Part shown: one piece after another, positions 45,001 to 54,000 of the stretch
How positions within the stretch are numbered: the first letter of the stretch is position 1
Layout of the letters: every line of letters starts with the position of its first letter
Assembly (NCBI GenBank): GCA_045046875.1
Contig: JASFYY010000048.1
Span: forward strand, 16,298-80,297
Source of the DNA: Verrucomicrobiota bacterium
GTDB lineage: Bacteria > Verrucomicrobiota > Verrucomicrobiia > Verrucomicrobiales > DEV007
Length of the DNA: 64,000 nucleotides
Reading direction: 5' to 3'
Position numbers: made by a program

Positions 45001-48000
45001 GGCTTATCATACTGAGACAAAACCATTGTCGCCAAATGCCCGCCAGCCGAAAAACCAAGAATGCCAATTTTTTTGGGATCGATCCCCCACTCTCCAGCTC
45101 GTTTGCGCACCAGACTCATCGCTCGCTGTGCGTCCTGCAGCGGTGCCTGGCTTTTATCCAAACCCTTTCGCCGCGGCACCCGGTATTTTAACAACACCGC
45201 AGTGATACCCAGTTGATTCAACCACTTACAAACCTCAGTGCCTTCATGGGACATCGCCAGAATATTGTAACCACCTCCGGGACAGACCAAAACCGCCGCA
45301 CCACTGTTCTCAATCCCTTTCCCAGGACGGTAAAGTGTGATGGTCGCTTGGGTCACATTGGTCAGCCTCACCAAGCCGTCTCCCCGTTCAATCGTTTTTT
45401 CAGCAGCCACATCACCCTTCTCACCCGGCACCTCACCCGCCCAAAGCGGAATCGGCTCTCCTACCACCGAGCTCGGATCGGCAGTCAAATCACCAGCCGC
45501 AAGAAAAGTCACGGCCAGCAAAGCCGCCATTTGAAAGTTCAAGCGGCGCTTCAGCGTCGGGCAAATAAGGGGAGTCATTAGTTTCATCGTTATAATAAGA
45601 AGATCAGCAAAACCTCGCAGATTGTGTAGTTTTAAAAACTATTATAATTCATCGACAAATAAACCAAGGATAAAACGCTTTTAAAAGTAGAAATCAACGA
45701 ACAAAACCTGAGCAAAAATCGTCCAAATATCAGAAGTAACACATCGACAAGGCTTCCCCTTTTTTGATAATATCCAAATAATAAGAGCAGCCTAGATAAA
45801 GCACGGCGAATGACAGCCAATAAACACGCCCCCTTCACTCGAGAAACCGAACGCCGCACCAGGCGCTGGTTTCCGTGGAATCTACTGCGACCTGGCCGGG
45901 GTACTGCCAAATTCTCCCGCAAACCCACTGCCGAGTCCGCTCCCAAGCAAATACGCATCGGCTTGGCTTTATCCTCCGGCGGCGCCAAAGGTCTTGCTCA
46001 CGTCGGGGTTATACAAGTGCTCGAAGAAAATGACATCCACATCGACGCCATTGCCGGGTGCAGCATGGGCGCTTATGTAGGATCGTTATGGGCGGCTGGT
46101 TTTAACGGGCAACAAATGGCTAAACTAGCAGCGGAGTTGGACACCAATCGCGACATGCTCAAACTGGTCGACCCGATCTTCCCTCCCCGCCGCGGTTTCA
46201 TTCACGGTGACAAGCTCGAAGACTGGCTGGCTCGCTCGCTCAAAGACGCCAGCTTCGACCAATTAGAAAAACCGCTCTACGTGGTCGCCACCGAACTCGA
46301 CGGTTTTGCCCGTAAGGTTTTTCATCAGGGAGACGTGGTCTCAGCCGTGCGCGCCAGCCTGTCGATCCCCGGCATCTTGGAACCGGCAGTGCGTGATGGG
46401 GTGGAATATGTCGACGGTGGTGTCTCCGATCCCTTACCCGTCGACGTGTTGAAAGATCACGGTATCGATGCCGTTATCGCCGTGAATGTCATCCCCTCGA
46501 TTGAAGATTTAAAAAACTGCCGTCTCAAAGCGCAGTTGATCCAAAAAAACAAACGTTGGTGGCAGCACCCCGCCTCCTGGCTCAATCAGAAACTCAACTA
46601 TTTTGCCAAAGGCAACCTGCTCGACATCCTGCGCGGAGCGGCCATGGGTTCACAGATTCGCCTACTCGAAGAATGTTCCAAACGCGCCGACGTATTGCTG
46701 CGTCCCATCGTCTGCGATTCGAGTTGGCACAACTACACCAATTACGAAGAATACATTCAAACCGGTCGTGAAATCGCCACAGCCAAACTACCGGAAATCA
46801 AAGCCCTGATCGCGGCCTGCGATCAGGCTAAAACGCTAAACGCCCAATGAGCACCTTGTCAGCCAGACATCCATTGCGAAAAAACTGGGATCAACTGGAT
46901 TCGGCTACCCTGCGCGAGTTGCAACTGAAACAGCTGCGGCATTTCCTCAAACAAACCGTCTTACCCTTCTCCAAACACTACCGCGAGCTTTTCCACCAAC
47001 ACGGCCTGAGTCCCGATGACCTGCAATCTTGGAATGATCTCACCAAGATTCCTTTCACCTCAAAGAAGGATCTACTGACTTCCCCCGAGCACCCCGACCG
47101 AAACAAGGACTTCGTCATCGTTCCCGATGAAGCTCTGCTCAAACGTCGCCCGGCCACTATTTTCCGAGCCCTTACCCGCGGTGCAGCGAACGCAAAAGCC
47201 AGCCTCGAACAAGAATACCGCCCCATCATGATGACCAGCACCACCGGTCGATCCAGCGAACCTGTGCCGTTTTTCTACACTCATCACGACATCGAGAATC
47301 TCAAGCTCACCGGTCGCCGCTTGATGGAGATCTGCGAGTCGCAGCCGGACTTCCGTCACATCAACATGTTCCCCTTTGCCCCGCACCTGGCTTTTTGGCA
47401 GGCCCACTACGCAGGCACCGGTTTTAATACCTTCTGCATCAGCACCGGAGGCGGCAAGGTGATGGGCACCTCGGGCAATGTGATGCTGTTGGGCAAAATC
47501 AAACCCGATGCGCTGATCGGCATGCCCACTTTTATCTATCACGTCCTGACCGAGGCGATCAGCGAAGGCGTGCGCTGCGACAGTCTCAAGCGTTTTGTGC
47601 TCGGTGGCGAAAAAGTTCCCAATGGCATGAGACGCAAACTGCGCGCGCTCGCGGCTAAACTGGGATCCGACAATGTCGAAGTGATGGCCACCTACGCCTT
47701 CACCGAATCCAAAACCGCCTGGCCGGAGTGCCCCGCCCACGGCACCGAAAAAACCGAGTCCTCTGGTTACCACATCTACCCCGATCTGGGCATCATCGAA
47801 ATCGTCAATCCCGAGACTGGTGAAACCATGCCCGAAGGACAACCCGGCGAAATCGTTTACACCCCGCTCGACAGCCGCGGCACGGTCGTTCTGCGCTACC
47901 GAACCGGGGACTGCATCAGCGGCGGCATCACTTACCAGACCTGCCCACAATGTGGACGCAACTGCCCGCGTCTGCTGGGTCGCATTTCGCGAGTGTCCGA

Positions 48001-51000: not shown

Positions 51001-54000
51001 CGGCGCTGCCTATTTCCGAACTGATCAACGATCCCAAGATCACCCACCCCGAACGAATCCTCGGGCTGCACTTTTTCAACCCCGTACACCGGATGAAATT
51101 GGTGGAAGTGGTGGTACCGGAAAGCACTGATCGCAATCACGTCGAGGTCTGTTTGAAATTTCTCCGCGGCATTGGTAAACTGCCGGTGGTGGTGAAAGAC
51201 AGCCCTGGGTTTTTGGTCAATCGCATCCTACTGCCTTATTTGATCGAAGCCGGTCGCCTGTATGATTCGGGCGTGGACGCTCGGGACATCGACCGGGCAA
51301 TGCTCGCTTTTGGCATGCCGATGGGACCGCTCCGCTTGTTGGATGAAATTGGCCTCGATGTAGGACTGCACGTGGCGGGCACTTTGGAAACCGCTTTCGG
51401 CAAACGTTTCGAAATCCCCGGCATCCTCAGACGCATGGTTGATTGTGGCAATCTAGGGCGCAAGTCCGGGGGTGGTTTTTACCGCTACGACGGAGCATCC
51501 TCCGGCAACAATGAAGCCAACCCCGCAGCGCTCGAATGCCGTCGCAGCGGCAGCGAACGTGAACTGAGCCAACAGGCTATTCAAAATCGCCTGGCGTTAT
51601 TGATGGCTAACGAGTCCTGGCGATGCCTGGAGGAAAAAGTCGCACAAAGTGCTGATGATATTGATTTTGCAATGATCATGGGAACCGGTTTTGCTCCGTT
51701 CCGAGGCGGTCCCATGACCTGGCTGCACGATTTTGGCCCTGGCAATGCCTGTGCTATTCTCGACCAACTGACAGGCAGCGAAGGCGAACGTTTTCTGCCC
51801 GCCGATTCACTGCGCAAAGCTTCACAAATTCCAGCACAAACACCGGAAAAAACCAGCCCAAGTCCTTCCAAATCAACTAAGACCGATTCCGAGGAAGACC
51901 TTACCCCACCCATCACAAACGAAAAAACTCCGCAAAACCAACACAGCGGCTCCAAAGTGATCGACACCTCGAAAATGTCCCCTGCGGAACGAGCGGCACT
52001 GGAATTAACCGAAGCGGCCAGAGACAAAGTCACCGGCCCTCGCAGTTTTTCTGCTTCGCTGTTCATGGGCGAAGCCAACATGGATGCCATCATCCCCTTC
52101 CCTCTTCCCAAACAGGAAGAAGAAAAACGCTCGGAAGAATTTCTTGCTGATTTGCAAAAATTCCTCGATGAAAAAGTAGATGCCGACCGCATCGACAAAA
52201 GCGGTGAGATCCCTGCGCCCGTGATCAATGGCCTGGCGAAAATGGGGGCTTTTGGAATCAAAATCCCCCAGGAATATGGCGGCCTCGGCCTACCACAAAC
52301 CACCTACTCCCGCGCCGCCATGTTGCTCGGTGCCAAATGCGGCAGTCTGACCGCACTGGTATCCGCCCATCAGTCAATCGGAGTTCCCCAACCGCTGATC
52401 CTCTTTGGCACGGAAAAACAAAAACAAAAATACCTGCCGCGCTGTGCCGGCGGTGAAATTTCTGCTTTTGCTCTCACCGAACCCGATGTCGGATCAGATC
52501 CCGCCAAAATGGGCACCACCGCCACACCGAGCAAAAACGGCAAAAACTTTGTCATCAATGGAAAAAAACTATGGTGCACCAATCTGCATAAAGCCGGGCT
52601 GATCGTCGTGATGGCCAAAACCCCGCCTCCCGAAGGCGCTCCGCCCTCGGCTCGATCGATCACCGCTTTCATCGTCGAGATGGACAGCCCCGGCATCGAG
52701 ATCACCCACCGCTGCCGCTTCATGGGTCTGAAAGCTCTTTATAATGGGGTGGTCACTTTCAAAAACGTGCGTGTGCCGACTGAAAACATCATTCTCGGTG
52801 AAGGGCGCGGATTGAAAGTCGCCCTAACCACATTAAACACCGGACGCATCACCCTACCCGCCGCTTGTGTCGGACTGGCCAAGGAATGTCTCAGGATTTC
52901 CACCGAGTGGGCTGCGGAACGGGTGCAATGGGGCTCTCCTATTGGCAAACACGACGCCATCGCACAAAAGCTCGCCAAGATGGCCGCCGAAACTTTTGCG
53001 ATGGAATCGATCGTGCTCTACACCTCCGGCCTGGTCGATCGTGACAAAAAGGCCGATATCCGCATCGAAGCCGCTTTCGGAAAACTGTGGGGCAGCGAAC
53101 GCGGGTGGGACATCGCCACGGAAACCATGCAAATCCGCGGAGGCCGCGGATACGAAACTTCCGAGTCGCTCAAGTCCCGCGGCGAAGAAGGCATTCCGGT
53201 CGAACGTTTCCTACGCGACAGCCGCATCAATACCATCTTCGAAGGATCGAGCGAGATTATGCGCCTCTTCATCGCCCGTGAAGCCCTCGATCCACATCTC
53301 AACGTCGGCGGTGCGGTGCTCAACAGCACCCTGCCGAACAAAGTGCGTTTCGAAGCATTACTGAACGCGGCCAAATTCTACGCTTGGTGGTATCCCTTGC
53401 AATGGGTGCCCGCCTTGTTCGGCACTTGTGGCTGTCAGGGGAAAATGCACCCTGGACTCAATCGTGAGATTCGTAAAGTGCGTGCCAATAGTCGTAAACT
53501 CGCGCGTAAACTCTTTCACGCCATGATCATCAACGGTCCCAAGCTGGAGAAAAAACAAAGCCAACTCGGACGTTTTGTCGACATCGGCTCGGAACTGTTC
53601 GCGATCACCGCGACTTGTTCCCGCGCCCAGCAACTGCTCGATCACGACGATACCGAGAACAAAGAGGAACTGTTAGCCATGGTCGAATATTTCTGCCAAC
53701 TCACCCGCCAGAAAATCGACCGCCTGTTCCGCGATCTGTCGCAGAACTCGGATAACCAGGGTTATCAAGTGGCTAAACGCCTGTTGGAAAAAGAAAAATA
53801 AAAAACTCCCCATTTTTCCCGCTTACGGCTTGACCTCCGCCCCCATGATCCCGATGCTCGCAGCAGTTCCCACTCTCCAATGAATCTGCGCGACCAACTC
53901 AAAACCATTCTGCCCGACATTTTGCCGGCCACTCCTGTTGATTCGATCAAAGGCACCGAGCTGATCGAGTTGGTCAAATACCGGCTTCACCAGAACTACA

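Follow-up and report, generated by a model that had tools for sequence, protein, structure and literature searches.

A FadJ-like alpha subunit fused to an acyl-CoA dehydrogenase from a widespread, usually ETF-less group, with oxygen or a membrane quinone as the probable electron acceptor

The closest described counterparts of the locus studied here are of two kinds. FadJ/FadI and FadB/FadA of E. coli and the mitochondrial TFP have an alpha chain that combines enoyl-CoA hydratase (ECH) with 3-hydroxyacyl-CoA dehydrogenase (HCDH) and stands beside a thiolase. Human VLCAD and ACAD9 (PDB 3b96, 7s7g, 8phe) and the FadE-type acyl-CoA dehydrogenases (ACADs) of Bacillus and Thermus (3owa, 2z1q) are clients of the electron-transfer flavoprotein (ETF) and carry a Glu at the docking site. 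Passages of PMC10925408 described E212 of MCAD as key to the ETF contact, with a Glu also in VLCAD and ACAD9; LCAD was described there as missing this glutamate, yet using ETF with the help of another Glu close by. E. coli FadE (814 aa), as presented in passages of PMC11495604 and PMC9329746, has no identified ETF partner and leaks H2O2. ETF is also unneeded by acyl-CoA oxidases (Arabidopsis ACX4 and yeast ACO3, 5ys9) and the engineered Mco, which have Asn-Gly after the xMG strand (a section of PMC6017585). In the EpxF/EpnF epoxyketone synthases (9gn5), the catalytic Glu has been lost, and the enzymes carry out decarboxylation and epoxidation in natural-product clusters.

The locus shown in Table 1 joined elements of both kinds. 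The ORF and its Pfam domains bore out the survey's finding of a single-chain ECH, HCDH, and ACAD enzyme for the first three steps of beta-oxidation, although the order of the steps along the chain was 2-3-1. Its start codon, an ATG, lay 13 nt downstream of the thiolase stop. As in FadJ, FadB, and TFP, the alpha part had both catalytic domains with intact motifs and an adjacent thiolase gene: both Glu motifs of the ECH domain, and GxGxMG and HFFNP of the HCDH domains, were invariant across 66 fused homologues. The FadJ-like fold continued past the HCDH domains to about aa 716. Over 693 alignment columns, this part shared 35% identity with E. coli FadJ; it scored 603 bits against the FadJ model NF008363 over aa 23-716; the score was under the cut-off of 869, so the alpha part is FadJ-like, not FadJ. 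It differed from the known alpha chains in having an ACAD attached C-terminally by a disordered linker. A model of the two modules had a pTM of 0.59, and the span between the conserved motifs flanking the linker ranged from 25 to 139 aa in the 66 fused homologues.

Table 1. Features of the fused gene and its operon, in positions of the window (the whole 64,000-nt stretch of DNA that was analysed)
Feature	Position	Strand	Evidence
Sigma-70-like promoter match, upstream of operon	45744..45771	+	Consensus only, 10 of 12 match
Patatin-like lipase (RssA-like), 346 aa	45810..46850	+	PF01734, E 3.9e-33
PaaK-fold AMP-forming CoA ligase, 501 aa	46847..48352	+	PF00501
3-Ketoacyl-CoA thiolase, 417 aa	48413..49666	+	PF00108/PF02803
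Fused FadJ-like alpha subunit and VLCAD/ACAD9-type ACAD, 1373 aa	49680..53801	+	ORF call, Pfam, NCBIfam, homologue search, contig check
ECH domain (aa 32-221)	49773..50342	+	ECH_1 PF00378, E 1.5e-37
HCDH domains (aa 328-603)	50661..51488	+	PF02737 (3HCDH_N, 328-507), PF00725 (3HCDH, 510-603)
Disordered linker, Ser/Pro/Thr/Lys-rich (about aa 719-761)	51834..51962	+	pLDDT <50
ACAD catalytic core (aa 818-1202)	52131..53285	+	Acyl-CoA_dh_N/M/1 (PF02771/PF02770/PF00441)
W965-C966-T967 flavin motif (MCAD W166-I167-T168)	52572..52580	+	Clade alignment, MCAD mapping
Remodelled strand aa 1010-1023 (C1012, F1014, N1022-G1023)	52707..52748	+	Alignments to MCAD, EpxF, yeast ACO3, E. coli FadE
Clade-specific 10-residue insert (aa 1159-1168) after GGRG loop	53154..53183	+	Clade alignment; partly helical in model
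Catalytic base E1188 (IFEG motif)	53241..53243	+	182/182; aligns with IFEG Glu of VLCAD, ACAD9
Helix-turn-helix aa 1205-1244 at position of VLCAD membrane-binding hairpin (440-473)	53292..53411	+	Alignment to 3b96
ACAD9/VLCAD-type C-terminal domain (aa 1281-1366)	53520..53777	+	ACAD9-ACADV_C PF21343, 29.8 bits (cut-off 27.8); fold match

The ACAD part had the three-domain core and C-terminal helical domain of VLCAD/ACAD9-type enzymes. The AlphaFold model of the core (pLDDT 91, pTM 0.92) matched ACAD9 and VLCAD best, with EpxF at rank 7, and the solved VLCAD, ACAD9, and FadE-type structures gave TM values of 0.80-0.83 to it. These enzymes and the query shared the C-terminal domain and the positions of the catalytic Glu and the hairpin. 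By analogy with VLCAD and ACAD9, the C-terminal domain implies a homodimer, which would sit on the membrane through the hairpin as VLCAD does, while the FadJ part would pair with the thiolase.

The fusion is not an assembly artefact, because four further genomes from this genus have the same fusion and a contig of run X1 bridged 51231-52198, across the junction, with no gap; no indel was listed in any of the four runs. The earlier count of 67 homologues longer than 1250 aa was also reproduced, among 120 listed. However, the survey had called the enzymes fused in many genomes of the family, which overstated the case. A strong ACAD hit was obtained in 67 family genomes, of which 8 were fused, 51 were split but adjacent, 7 lacked an adjacent FadJ in the stretch examined, and 1 was unscored; the fused form was thus a minority (8/59 of the adjacent FadJ/ACAD pairs in the family). 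The higher estimate may have come from a long open frame that was listed for both halves in split genomes (G006, G015, and G053). The fusion was polyphyletic, with five state changes and a single origin rejected, and it is a sporadic, repeated, minor event. Because most relatives were split, fusion is unnecessary for function; it would be a flexible tether, made repeatedly by stop loss between two tightly packed genes. Our literature search found no paper on a FadJ-ACAD fusion of this kind.

Pfam also confirmed the thiolase, CoA ligase, and patatin lipase that the survey had placed beside the fused gene. The patatin scored under the cut-off of NF007623, and it had the GGxKG, GxSxG, and DGG motifs; it would release fatty acids from lipids. 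The ligase gene overlapped the patatin stop by 4 nt. Its product had the adenylation motifs, and its best PDB match was PaaK (4r1l, E 2.5e-26). The best NCBIfam matches, FlxY and PaaK, were all under cut-off (102-154 bits versus 520-700), and we rejected assignment as a PaaK phenylacetate-CoA ligase on the basis of this score and of neighbours that were lipase and beta-oxidation genes. The substrate would be a fatty acid, although a PaaK-like ligase could also take an aryl acid. The thiolase had the catalytic Cys/His/Cys motifs and scored best against PRK08170 (421 bits, under the cut-off of 593). The promoter match was not above chance by itself, as seven such sites occurred in the region compared to 4.1 +/- 2.9 in shuffles.

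In 71 loci, the thiolase was conserved in 35, the ligase in 25, and the patatin in 21. In genomes where the ACAD gene stood alone, HCDH was found in 29/29 and thiolase in 28/29. We suggest a self-contained lipid-recycling operon in which the patatin would free fatty acids, the PaaK-fold ligase would make acyl-CoA, and the fused chain and thiolase would run all four steps of beta-oxidation. The gene families and intact catalytic motifs make this role very likely, with the substrates the more conjectural part. No aceA or aceB was found in the genome, so without a glyoxylate shunt the pathway would serve turnover and energy rather than growth on fatty acids alone.

As the survey had stated, the ACAD is the only one in the genome, which had one PF00441 match. 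The reported lack of ETF also held: the genome (94.7% complete) had no PF01012, PF00766, or PF05187 match and hence no ETF alpha, ETF beta, or ETF oxidoreductase gene by these models, and neither the four protein queries nor the two ETF models of Pfam recovered an ETF. In control genomes, the profiles scored above cut-off in 10/14, 10/14, and 3/14 cases, respectively. ETF was present in 1/121 family genomes, in 4/23 ACAD-bearing genomes of the phylum, and in 8/32 other genomes, and it was missing from three one-contig ACAD-bearing genomes (G206, minus 24,000 bases, G212, and G389). Therefore, the absence is not an artefact of incomplete MAGs. Among genomes bearing PF00115, ETF was no commoner with a clade ACAD (4/23) than without one (14/82). 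In G437, the etf genes close by belonged to an opposite-strand gene row that also included two ordinary ACADs. Clade ACADs were also found on 12 viral contigs, six of them with an adjacent FadJ and none with ETF in the flanks examined.

These results upheld the ETF independence proposed in the survey, but not as a trait of the fusion or of the family, since the lack of ETF extended to the whole ACAD clade, fused or split, across several phyla. Nor is ETF-less beta-oxidation unprecedented, because E. coli FadE, as described in the passages of PMC11495604 and PMC9329746 noted above, has no known ETF. E. coli has three ETF homologues, whereas the clade genomes compared with it here had none.

We compared 182 clade sequences with 48 other ACADs. 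The Cys/Ser at the docking site, the 10-residue insert, and the oxidase-type Asn are newly described here for the clade. Relative to VLCAD, ACAD9, and the FadE-type ACADs, the clade had Phe for Lys, Asn for Thr, a Trp in the RxQW motif, and the insert. The position aligned with MCAD E212, the contact for ETF alpha Arg249, was not acidic (C1012; C in 170 and S in 12). This loss alone is not decisive, because LCAD uses ETF without that glutamate (a passage of PMC10925408). In the same strand, F1014 was found in 182 sequences, N1022 in 181, and Gly or Ala at G1023 in 145 and 35, respectively; the N1022 position was Thr in 43/48 comparison ACADs. The insert followed the FAD-binding GGxG loop, was a gap in 48/48 comparison ACADs, was missing from ACAD9 and VLCAD as well, and had E1159, S1163, and R1167 in 182/182; the structure model placed a helix at ACAD residues 411-416. 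The catalytic Glu, which corresponds to MCAD E376, was accompanied by the FAD-binding motifs, and the LTE, K-x-W, and R-x-Q motifs were present in 181-182/182. Unlike EpxF/EpnF, the clade thus retained the Glu, and it sat with FadJ and thiolase. Given the absence of ETF genes and the remodelled docking face, we are highly confident that this ACAD does not use ETF.

It is very improbable that the enzyme is an ordinary ETF client whose ETF was missed as incomplete or divergent, or that it is a scaffold without catalysis, as ACAD9 is when complex I is assembled: its nearest solved relatives are ACAD9 and VLCAD, the region of the N-terminal ETF beta recognition pocket aligned gap-free to both and stayed hydrophobic (a comparison at the level of the region, not of residues aligned to MCAD), and a few phylum and other genomes do have ETF, but this genome, nearly all of its family, and the one-contig genomes do not, and the catalytic Glu and FAD-binding residues were invariant in a gene still coupled to FadJ and thiolase.

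The electrons probably go to oxygen or to a membrane quinone. Our preferred reading, held tentatively and at somewhat less than even odds, is that the lipid-recycling operon works independently of ETF and that its ACAD is a membrane-associated, low-flux acyl-CoA oxidase. FADH2 would be reoxidised directly by O2 to give H2O2 at modest flux, and a peroxiredoxin or cytochrome c peroxidase would clear the product; the genome carries a peroxiredoxin and two CCP-family genes. With O2 as acceptor, energy would be recovered only from NADH and acetyl-CoA. Like the oxidases (ACX4 N255, Mco N377), the clade had Asn (181/182) followed by Gly (145/182). N1022-G1023 corresponded to Mcd E377-Y378 from ranges aligned to 6es9, assuming no gap near the range starts, and a section of PMC6017585 described Mcd E377N as mimicking ACX4 N255, with Gly at 378 in oxidases. 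The same section stated that positive charge near the flavin favours O2; R1011, R1156, and R1167, predicted to lie near it, were found in 181-182/182 clade sequences. A 27-aa stretch matched the O2-using EpxF and yeast ACO3 best, with weak E values (0.85 and 0.87) that allow the alignment to be used for position only. EpxF Phe227, which stacks on the flavin (a passage of PMC12624316), aligned within one residue of F1014.

The flavin motif (W 182/182; C 182/182, clade-specific; T 169 and S 13) counts against O2, because the kept T967 and W965 make the gatekeeper dehydrogenase-type. Acyl-CoA oxidases have Gly at this gatekeeper, and the clade was VLCAD-like overall, not ACOX-like. In a section of PMC6017585, T317G of Mcd was the sole single change giving oxidase activity, and EpxF has Gly185 (a passage of PMC12624316) at what appears to be the equivalent place. 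We therefore rejected formal membership in the acyl-CoA oxidase family, although the enzyme may work like one. Also against O2, no KatE, KatG, or Mn-catalase match was found in the genome; both KatE and KatG were missing from 5/6 genomes of the genus. In the family, KatE or KatG was present in 55/67 ACAD-bearing genomes versus 30/54 others, which are kin and not independent.

A less likely but serious alternative keeps the operon and its ETF independence and has the membrane-docked ACAD reduce menaquinone directly, with H2O2 only a leak. This would explain both why the gatekeeper Thr was retained and why catalases are lacking. Clade ACADs occurred in 23/105 genomes with PF00115 and 0/196 without, and thus only with heme-copper oxidases, which fits the quinone equally well as O2 (PF00115 also covers NO reductases); this genome had four PF00115 matches. 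Classical men genes were present (menB at 75% identity, menD, and menF), with no ubiA or ubiC match. The helix-turn-helix had conserved aromatic residues (Y1234 in 182, W1237 in 182, Y1238 in 179, and W1242 in 171 of 182) and a low hydrophobic moment. The VLCAD hairpin at this position binds membranes (a passage of PMC9237092), but VLCAD is ETF-dependent. E. coli FadE, for which a passage of PMC11495604 raised direct quinone reduction, showed the same pattern of a kept Thr, a lost E212-position Glu, and a Phe before Asn-Gly. It is only 26% identical, belongs to another subfamily, and has long N- and C-terminal extensions. Unlike the N-terminal extension of FadE, our enzyme showed no membrane-spanning stretch: the highest Kyte-Doolittle mean over 19 residues was 1.7, in the ECH domain. 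No quinone site was identified in it. The potential of menaquinone is below that of the acyl-CoA/enoyl-CoA couple, so the step would be marginal. M. tuberculosis FadE10, a possible member of the clade, was associated with a membrane domain, according to part of a preprint (bioRxiv 10.1101/2022.01.07.475471).

A carrier encoded elsewhere (a ferredoxin, flavodoxin, or Fe-S/CCG oxidoreductase), with the insert and arginines docking an acidic partner, is improbable. The three invariant residues of the insert and the basic face are what a binding surface would show, and the genome has two CCG-domain genes, but no redox partner recurred beside the gene in 71 loci (43 neighbours scanned) or 12 viral loci, and the module reached many phyla, and phages too, unaccompanied by one. 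Still less probable is an operon that tailors or degrades a special acyl group, such as an aryl-alkanoate, at a flux low enough for slow reoxidation. The FlxY and PaaK matches of the ligase, the lack of a FadL match in the genome, and the missing glyoxylate shunt are consistent with it. Against it, those matches were under cut-off, a lipase heads the operon, the ACAD has long-chain VLCAD architecture, the slot before the thiolase was filled by an AMP-binding enzyme of about 600 aa in L049, L059, and L152-L154, and an acyltransferase-hydrolase gene lay downstream in L152-L155.

ACADs of Streptomyces and Nonomuraea, at 47-49% identity, shared the FMG, RxQWG, GGRG insert, and Asn features, but both clade cysteines were absent in the two sequences compared. 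These actinobacterial homologues may be FadE10-type (Rv0873) ACADs, and as they carry the greater part of the signature, FadE10-like is a plausible label. None of the 18 NCBIfam matches was to a FadE10 model, and our literature search found no biochemical study of FadE10. As described in part of PMC8593149, M. tuberculosis etfBA and etfD mutants could grow on fatty acids only when a yeast oxidase was supplied, even though the species has FadE10; if FadE10 belongs to the clade, it does not suffice as a bypass in that organism.

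The 1373-aa fusion carries three beta-oxidation activities on one chain, as the survey's finding had claimed, with Pfam domains for enoyl-CoA hydratase (ECH; aa 32-221), 3-hydroxyacyl-CoA dehydrogenase (HCDH; aa 328-603), and the core of an acyl-CoA dehydrogenase (ACAD; aa 818-1202), as well as an ACAD9/VLCAD C-terminal domain (aa 1281-1366). The thiolase, CoA ligase, and patatin reported beside it were indeed found in the same row of four tightly packed genes, and catalytic motifs were present in all five enzyme modules. Four further genomes within the genus also have the fused ORF, its linker was spanned gap-free by a contig from a public sequencing run (X1), and 67 of the 120 matches listed were homologues of more than 1250 aa, in agreement with the survey.

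Positions and orientation of the operon genes, selected ACAD residues, and nearby ORFs in the window
Feature	Coordinates	Orientation
DUF116 + polyprenyl synthetase domain fusion, 598 aa	27019-28815	+
490-aa ORF	40380-41852	+
BD-FAE-type esterase	44646-45587	-
Patatin	45810-46850	co-oriented with operon
AMP-forming ligase	46847-48352	co-oriented with operon
Thiolase	48413-49666	co-oriented with operon
1373-aa ORF (fusion)	49680-53801	co-oriented with operon
C887	52338-52340	
C966	52575-52577	
C1012	52713-52715	
N1022-G1023	52743-52748	
351-aa ORF	53880-54935	+

The suggestion that the genes are fused in many genomes did not hold up. A draw of 121 family genomes yielded 79 with any match (8 weak matches were unlisted), and the junction was read in the 67 with a strong match to the ACAD part. 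Eight were fused, 51 were split with the two genes adjacent, 7 had no FadJ in the stretch examined, and 1 was unscored. Even within the genus, one genome (G060) keeps the two genes separate, each in its own reading frame. Across 50 split loci, 14 to 447 nt separated the end of FadJ from the first conserved ACAD motif (at most 123 nt in 44 of them), a spacing so short that one lost stop or frameshift would join the genes. A tree built from 182 ACAD domains (sequences of <450 aa were omitted, and a few duplicates occurred between protein and locus rows) requires 5 changes of the fused state, as does a 47-row subset. The largest fused group consisted of 58 database proteins, all fused and at 51-59% identity, which form a clade of their own. 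The idea of a single conserved innovation was rejected by the 5 state changes and by the failed monophyly of 15 fused rows (p-AU 1.6e-60, from a quick tree of the 47-row subset, which was picked after the first tree had been seen). The fusion is a sporadic, repeated joining of neighboring genes. Its linker, which measured 25-139 aa from one flanking motif to the other, was disordered in the structure model, and the pTM of 0.59 for a two-module model of aa 20-1219 (mean pLDDT 82) suggests that the FadJ part and the ACAD part are independent modules. Fixed docking of the two parts gave no sign in this monomer model, from which aa 1220-1373 were absent; an oligomer may have such contacts. By itself the fusion is a modest curiosity, and the testable part is the ETF-free clade formed by its ACAD domain and the fused or split relatives.

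As the survey had stated, the genome (94.7% complete) contained a single ACAD match, and ETF beta/alpha models, ETF-QO, and four ETF protein queries all returned no match in it. ETF was present in 1 of the 121 family genomes. This copy (L201, G024:C18:572000-591000) was located on another contig than the clade ACAD and was flanked on both sides by Fe-S/CCG oxidoreductase genes, of which one has a membrane domain like that of nitrate reductase gamma (EtfD-like); a GMC oxidoreductase gene adjoins. In a phylum sample of 301 genomes with a completeness of at least 90%, the clade ACAD (called at E <=1e-100) was found in 23 genomes, ETF in 165, and a heme-copper oxidase family gene in 105. The clade ACAD occurred only with a heme-copper oxidase gene (23/105 genomes versus 0/196 without one). 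Among the oxidase-bearing genomes, which include kin and are not independent, ETF was found in 4/23 with the clade ACAD and 14/82 without it. An ETF client would need ETF in 23/23, whereas the rates were equal, which argues for ETF independence. The apparent anti-correlation between the ACAD and ETF (4/23 versus 161/278) was set aside as a confound, because ETF was concentrated in genomes without a heme-copper oxidase (147/196). The valid statement is one of independence, not exclusion.

Three one-contig genomes (G206, G212, and G389) had the clade ACAD and no ETF match. A named-genome search covering Verrucomicrobiota, Nitrospirae, Fibrobacteria, Planctomycetota, Omnitrophota, Deltaproteobacteria, and others found ETF in 8 of 32 genomes, for which completeness was not given, and PF00115 was present in 48/49 ACAD-bearing genomes outside the family. 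In G437, etf genes occur close to the clade gene; they are on the opposite strand, however, where two ordinary ACADs share their row. Proximity of ETF to an ACAD gene was a weak control (3/48 comparison loci versus 1/72 clade loci). The absence of ETF is real and clade-wide, and the clade ACAD is very probably independent of ETF.

The ACAD model had an ACAD9/VLCAD-like fold (pLDDT 91, TM 0.80-0.83). We compared the 182 clade rows with 48 weaker matches of the same search, for which ETF dependence is not established. Catalytic E1188 was invariant in the clade, as was R1156 (182/182). F1014 (182/182) replaced a Lys found in 47/48 comparison ACADs, N1022 (181/182) a Thr found in 43/48, and W1084 (182/182) a Phe found in 48/48. 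A 10-residue insert, in which a Glu, a Ser, and an Arg are invariant, was restricted to the clade and was absent from all 48 comparison ACADs, ACAD9, and VLCAD; it presumably falls at MCAD E359, on the ETF-facing side. C1012 (C in 170 and S in 12 of 182) aligned with MCAD E212, a position described as key to ETF contact and occupied by Glu in VLCAD and ACAD9, while LCAD makes up for the absent Glu with a nearby one (PMC10925408); the pocket for the ETF recognition loop is described in PMC3546729. Residues 1012-1038 best matched EpxF and yeast ACO3, both of which use O2, with weak E-values. By aligned ranges, N1022-G1023 corresponds to Mcd E377-Y378, where an Asn has been related to N255 of ACX4 and a Gly is associated with oxidases (PMC6017585). 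The flavin of EpxF is stacked by Phe227 (PMC12624316), and epoxyketone synthases have been placed closest to the very-long-chain ACADs of bacteria (bioRxiv 10.64898/2025.12.23.696313). E. coli FadE, which has no identified ETF (PMC11495604, PMC9329746), has the Phe...Asn-Gly pattern in common with the clade. Judged from these alignments, the oxidative face of the clade flavin is rebuilt.

At N1022-G1023, Asn-Ala occurred in 7 of 13 clade rows from ETF-bearing genomes, a small and kin-biased sample in which 1 row lacked the Asn, and Ala occurred in 35/182 rows overall. Conserved cysteines were C966 (182/182), C1012, and C887 (172/182). Actinobacterial homologues carry most of the clade signature, and C966 and C1012 were absent in two of them. 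FadE10, the survey's label, is a plausible name for the clade ACAD.

We infer the electron acceptor from these patterns, and O2 leads, with a probability that we put slightly below even. The module does without a partner gene in every setting where it is found, including 12 viral contigs without ETF in the flanks examined, the clade occurs only with terminal oxidases, and Asn-Gly and the stacked Phe are common to the clade and O2-reacting relatives; for these reasons O2 ranks first. Against an oxidase, W965 and T967 were of the dehydrogenase type in 182/182 rows, and the sole single mutation described as giving Mcd oxidase activity was Thr-to-Gly (PMC6017585). M. tuberculosis ETF-pathway mutants did not grow on fatty acids unless a yeast oxidase was supplied (PMC8593149), and this failure despite FadE10 in that species would also count against it if FadE10 belongs to the clade. 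The source genome had four heme-copper oxidase family genes, yet KatE, KatG, and Mn-catalase had no match in it; the peroxide enzymes found were one peroxiredoxin and two CCP-family genes. KatE and KatG were both missing in 5/6 genomes of the genus, while most of the family had KatG. The kept Thr and missing catalases would hold an O2 route to modest flux. Catalase co-occurrence (55/67 ACAD-bearing versus 30/54 other family genomes) was dropped as support, being kin-biased in a family whose focal genus mostly lacks catalase. Of two oxidase marks the clade carries Asn-Gly and lacks the gatekeeper Gly, and it also lacks two marks of ETF-client ACADs, an encoded ETF and an acidic residue at the MCAD E212 position. 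On sequence grounds we would class it as a VLCAD/ACAD9-type member of the superfamily, assigned neither to ETF clients nor to oxidases.

Menaquinone ranks second as the acceptor, less likely than not, and several observations favor it. Residues 1205-1244, with invariant Tyr and Trp, match the position of the VLCAD membrane hairpin (PMC9237092), the genome has a men pathway, and FadE10 has been located to a mycobacterial membrane domain (bioRxiv 10.1101/2022.01.07.475471). However, the hairpin does not discriminate, because VLCAD has it and uses ETF. An amphipathic signal in the hairpin was discarded (moments 0.02-0.33, unremarkable), which leaves position and conservation as support. If the acceptor were a quinone, the ACAD would be linked directly to the membrane. 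Another carrier is improbable: no redox protein recurred among the neighbors in 71 loci with wide flanks, and a neighboring redox partner was dropped as the acceptor. We consider a special low-flux substrate very improbable, and an ETF-dependent or non-catalytic ACAD has the slightest chance.

Returning to O2, we propose, with somewhat more doubt than belief, that the clade is a natural acyl-CoA oxidase reached by its own route, with Asn-Gly, a stacked Phe, and a basic insert closing the ETF site while the gatekeeper Thr was kept. It would serve a peroxisome-like beta-oxidation in aerobic Verrucomicrobiota and others. The substrates would be fatty acids, the ACAD dimer would sit on the membrane, and the fusion would assemble with the thiolase into a membrane-docked four-step complex, working like the trifunctional enzyme but with its own ACAD tethered. 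If so, the fusion and thiolase genes would suffice for all four steps, the complex would depend on nothing but CoA, NAD+, and O2, and such a carrier-free module would explain travel between phyla and into phages. The result would be a compact beta-oxidation module with a natural oxidase on a VLCAD scaffold, an activity that engineering reached weakly through mutation (PMC6017585). For E. coli FadE, the literature treats the exit of reducing power in the absence of ETF as unsettled (PMC9329746, PMC11495604). E. coli genetics is blurred by three ETF homologues, and the clade is a cleaner case: its ACAD is the only one in the genome, ETF is missing, the protein lacks a transmembrane helix, its VLCAD-like model is confident, and the invariant residues to target make a short list. 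Our literature search, mostly outside subscription journals and supplements (where annotation tables could list the protein), turned up no description of either the fusion or the electron acceptor used by the clade.

What is conserved is the operon, not the fusion. In 71 loci with wide flanks, thiolase was found in 35, ligase in 25, and patatin in 21, with the order kept, and genomes with stand-alone ACAD genes had HCDH in 29/29 and thiolase in 28/29. The window's ligase was PaaK-like, under all cut-offs. In other lineages the ligase slot held an AMP-binding enzyme of ~600 aa and an acyltransferase-hydrolase lay 3' of the ACAD, which points to lipid-derived fatty acids. Four such loci (L152-L155, in G223, G310, G370, and G390) had a PlsC-type acyltransferase-alpha/beta hydrolase fusion 3' of the ACAD, and in three of them the ~600-aa ligase preceded thiolase, paralleling the lipase and ligase logic. 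With no match in the genome for isocitrate lyase, malate synthase, or FadL, fatty acids are unlikely to sustain growth by themselves; recycling and energy use are plausible. A promoter and terminator scan gave no more than chance level.

In six viral contigs (L217-L221 and L228), FadJ adjoined the clade ACAD, all unfused, with thiolase also present in five; ETF, patatin, and ligase had no match in the flanks examined. Another viral group (L222-L226) was divergent (45-47% identity) and lacked adjacent FadJ or thiolase. In the three rows checked, Asn-Gly and the catalytic Glu, here preceded by Val, were retained, and the aromatic hairpin motif was unmatched in all five members of the group. The nearest named relatives of the fusion among the matches listed were Verrucomicrobiota, some of them Verrucomicrobiales, and identical clade proteins were listed for Phragmitibacter flavus and Horticoccus luteus. 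Look-alike clusters in the ESM Atlas came from Verrucomicrobiota, Hydrogenedentota, Acidobacteriota, Actinomycetota, and Nitrospirota. NCBI and UniRef label an identical clade ACAD (L137:9962-11830, in G275) as DNA polymerase II, which is a misannotation. The 351-aa and 490-aa ORFs of the window had no Pfam match, and the former lies directly 3' of the operon in close relatives only. The DUF116 and polyprenyl synthetase domains form one protein, and the divergently oriented esterase, with a signal-like N-terminus, was upstream of the operon in 7/71 loci, all within the family.
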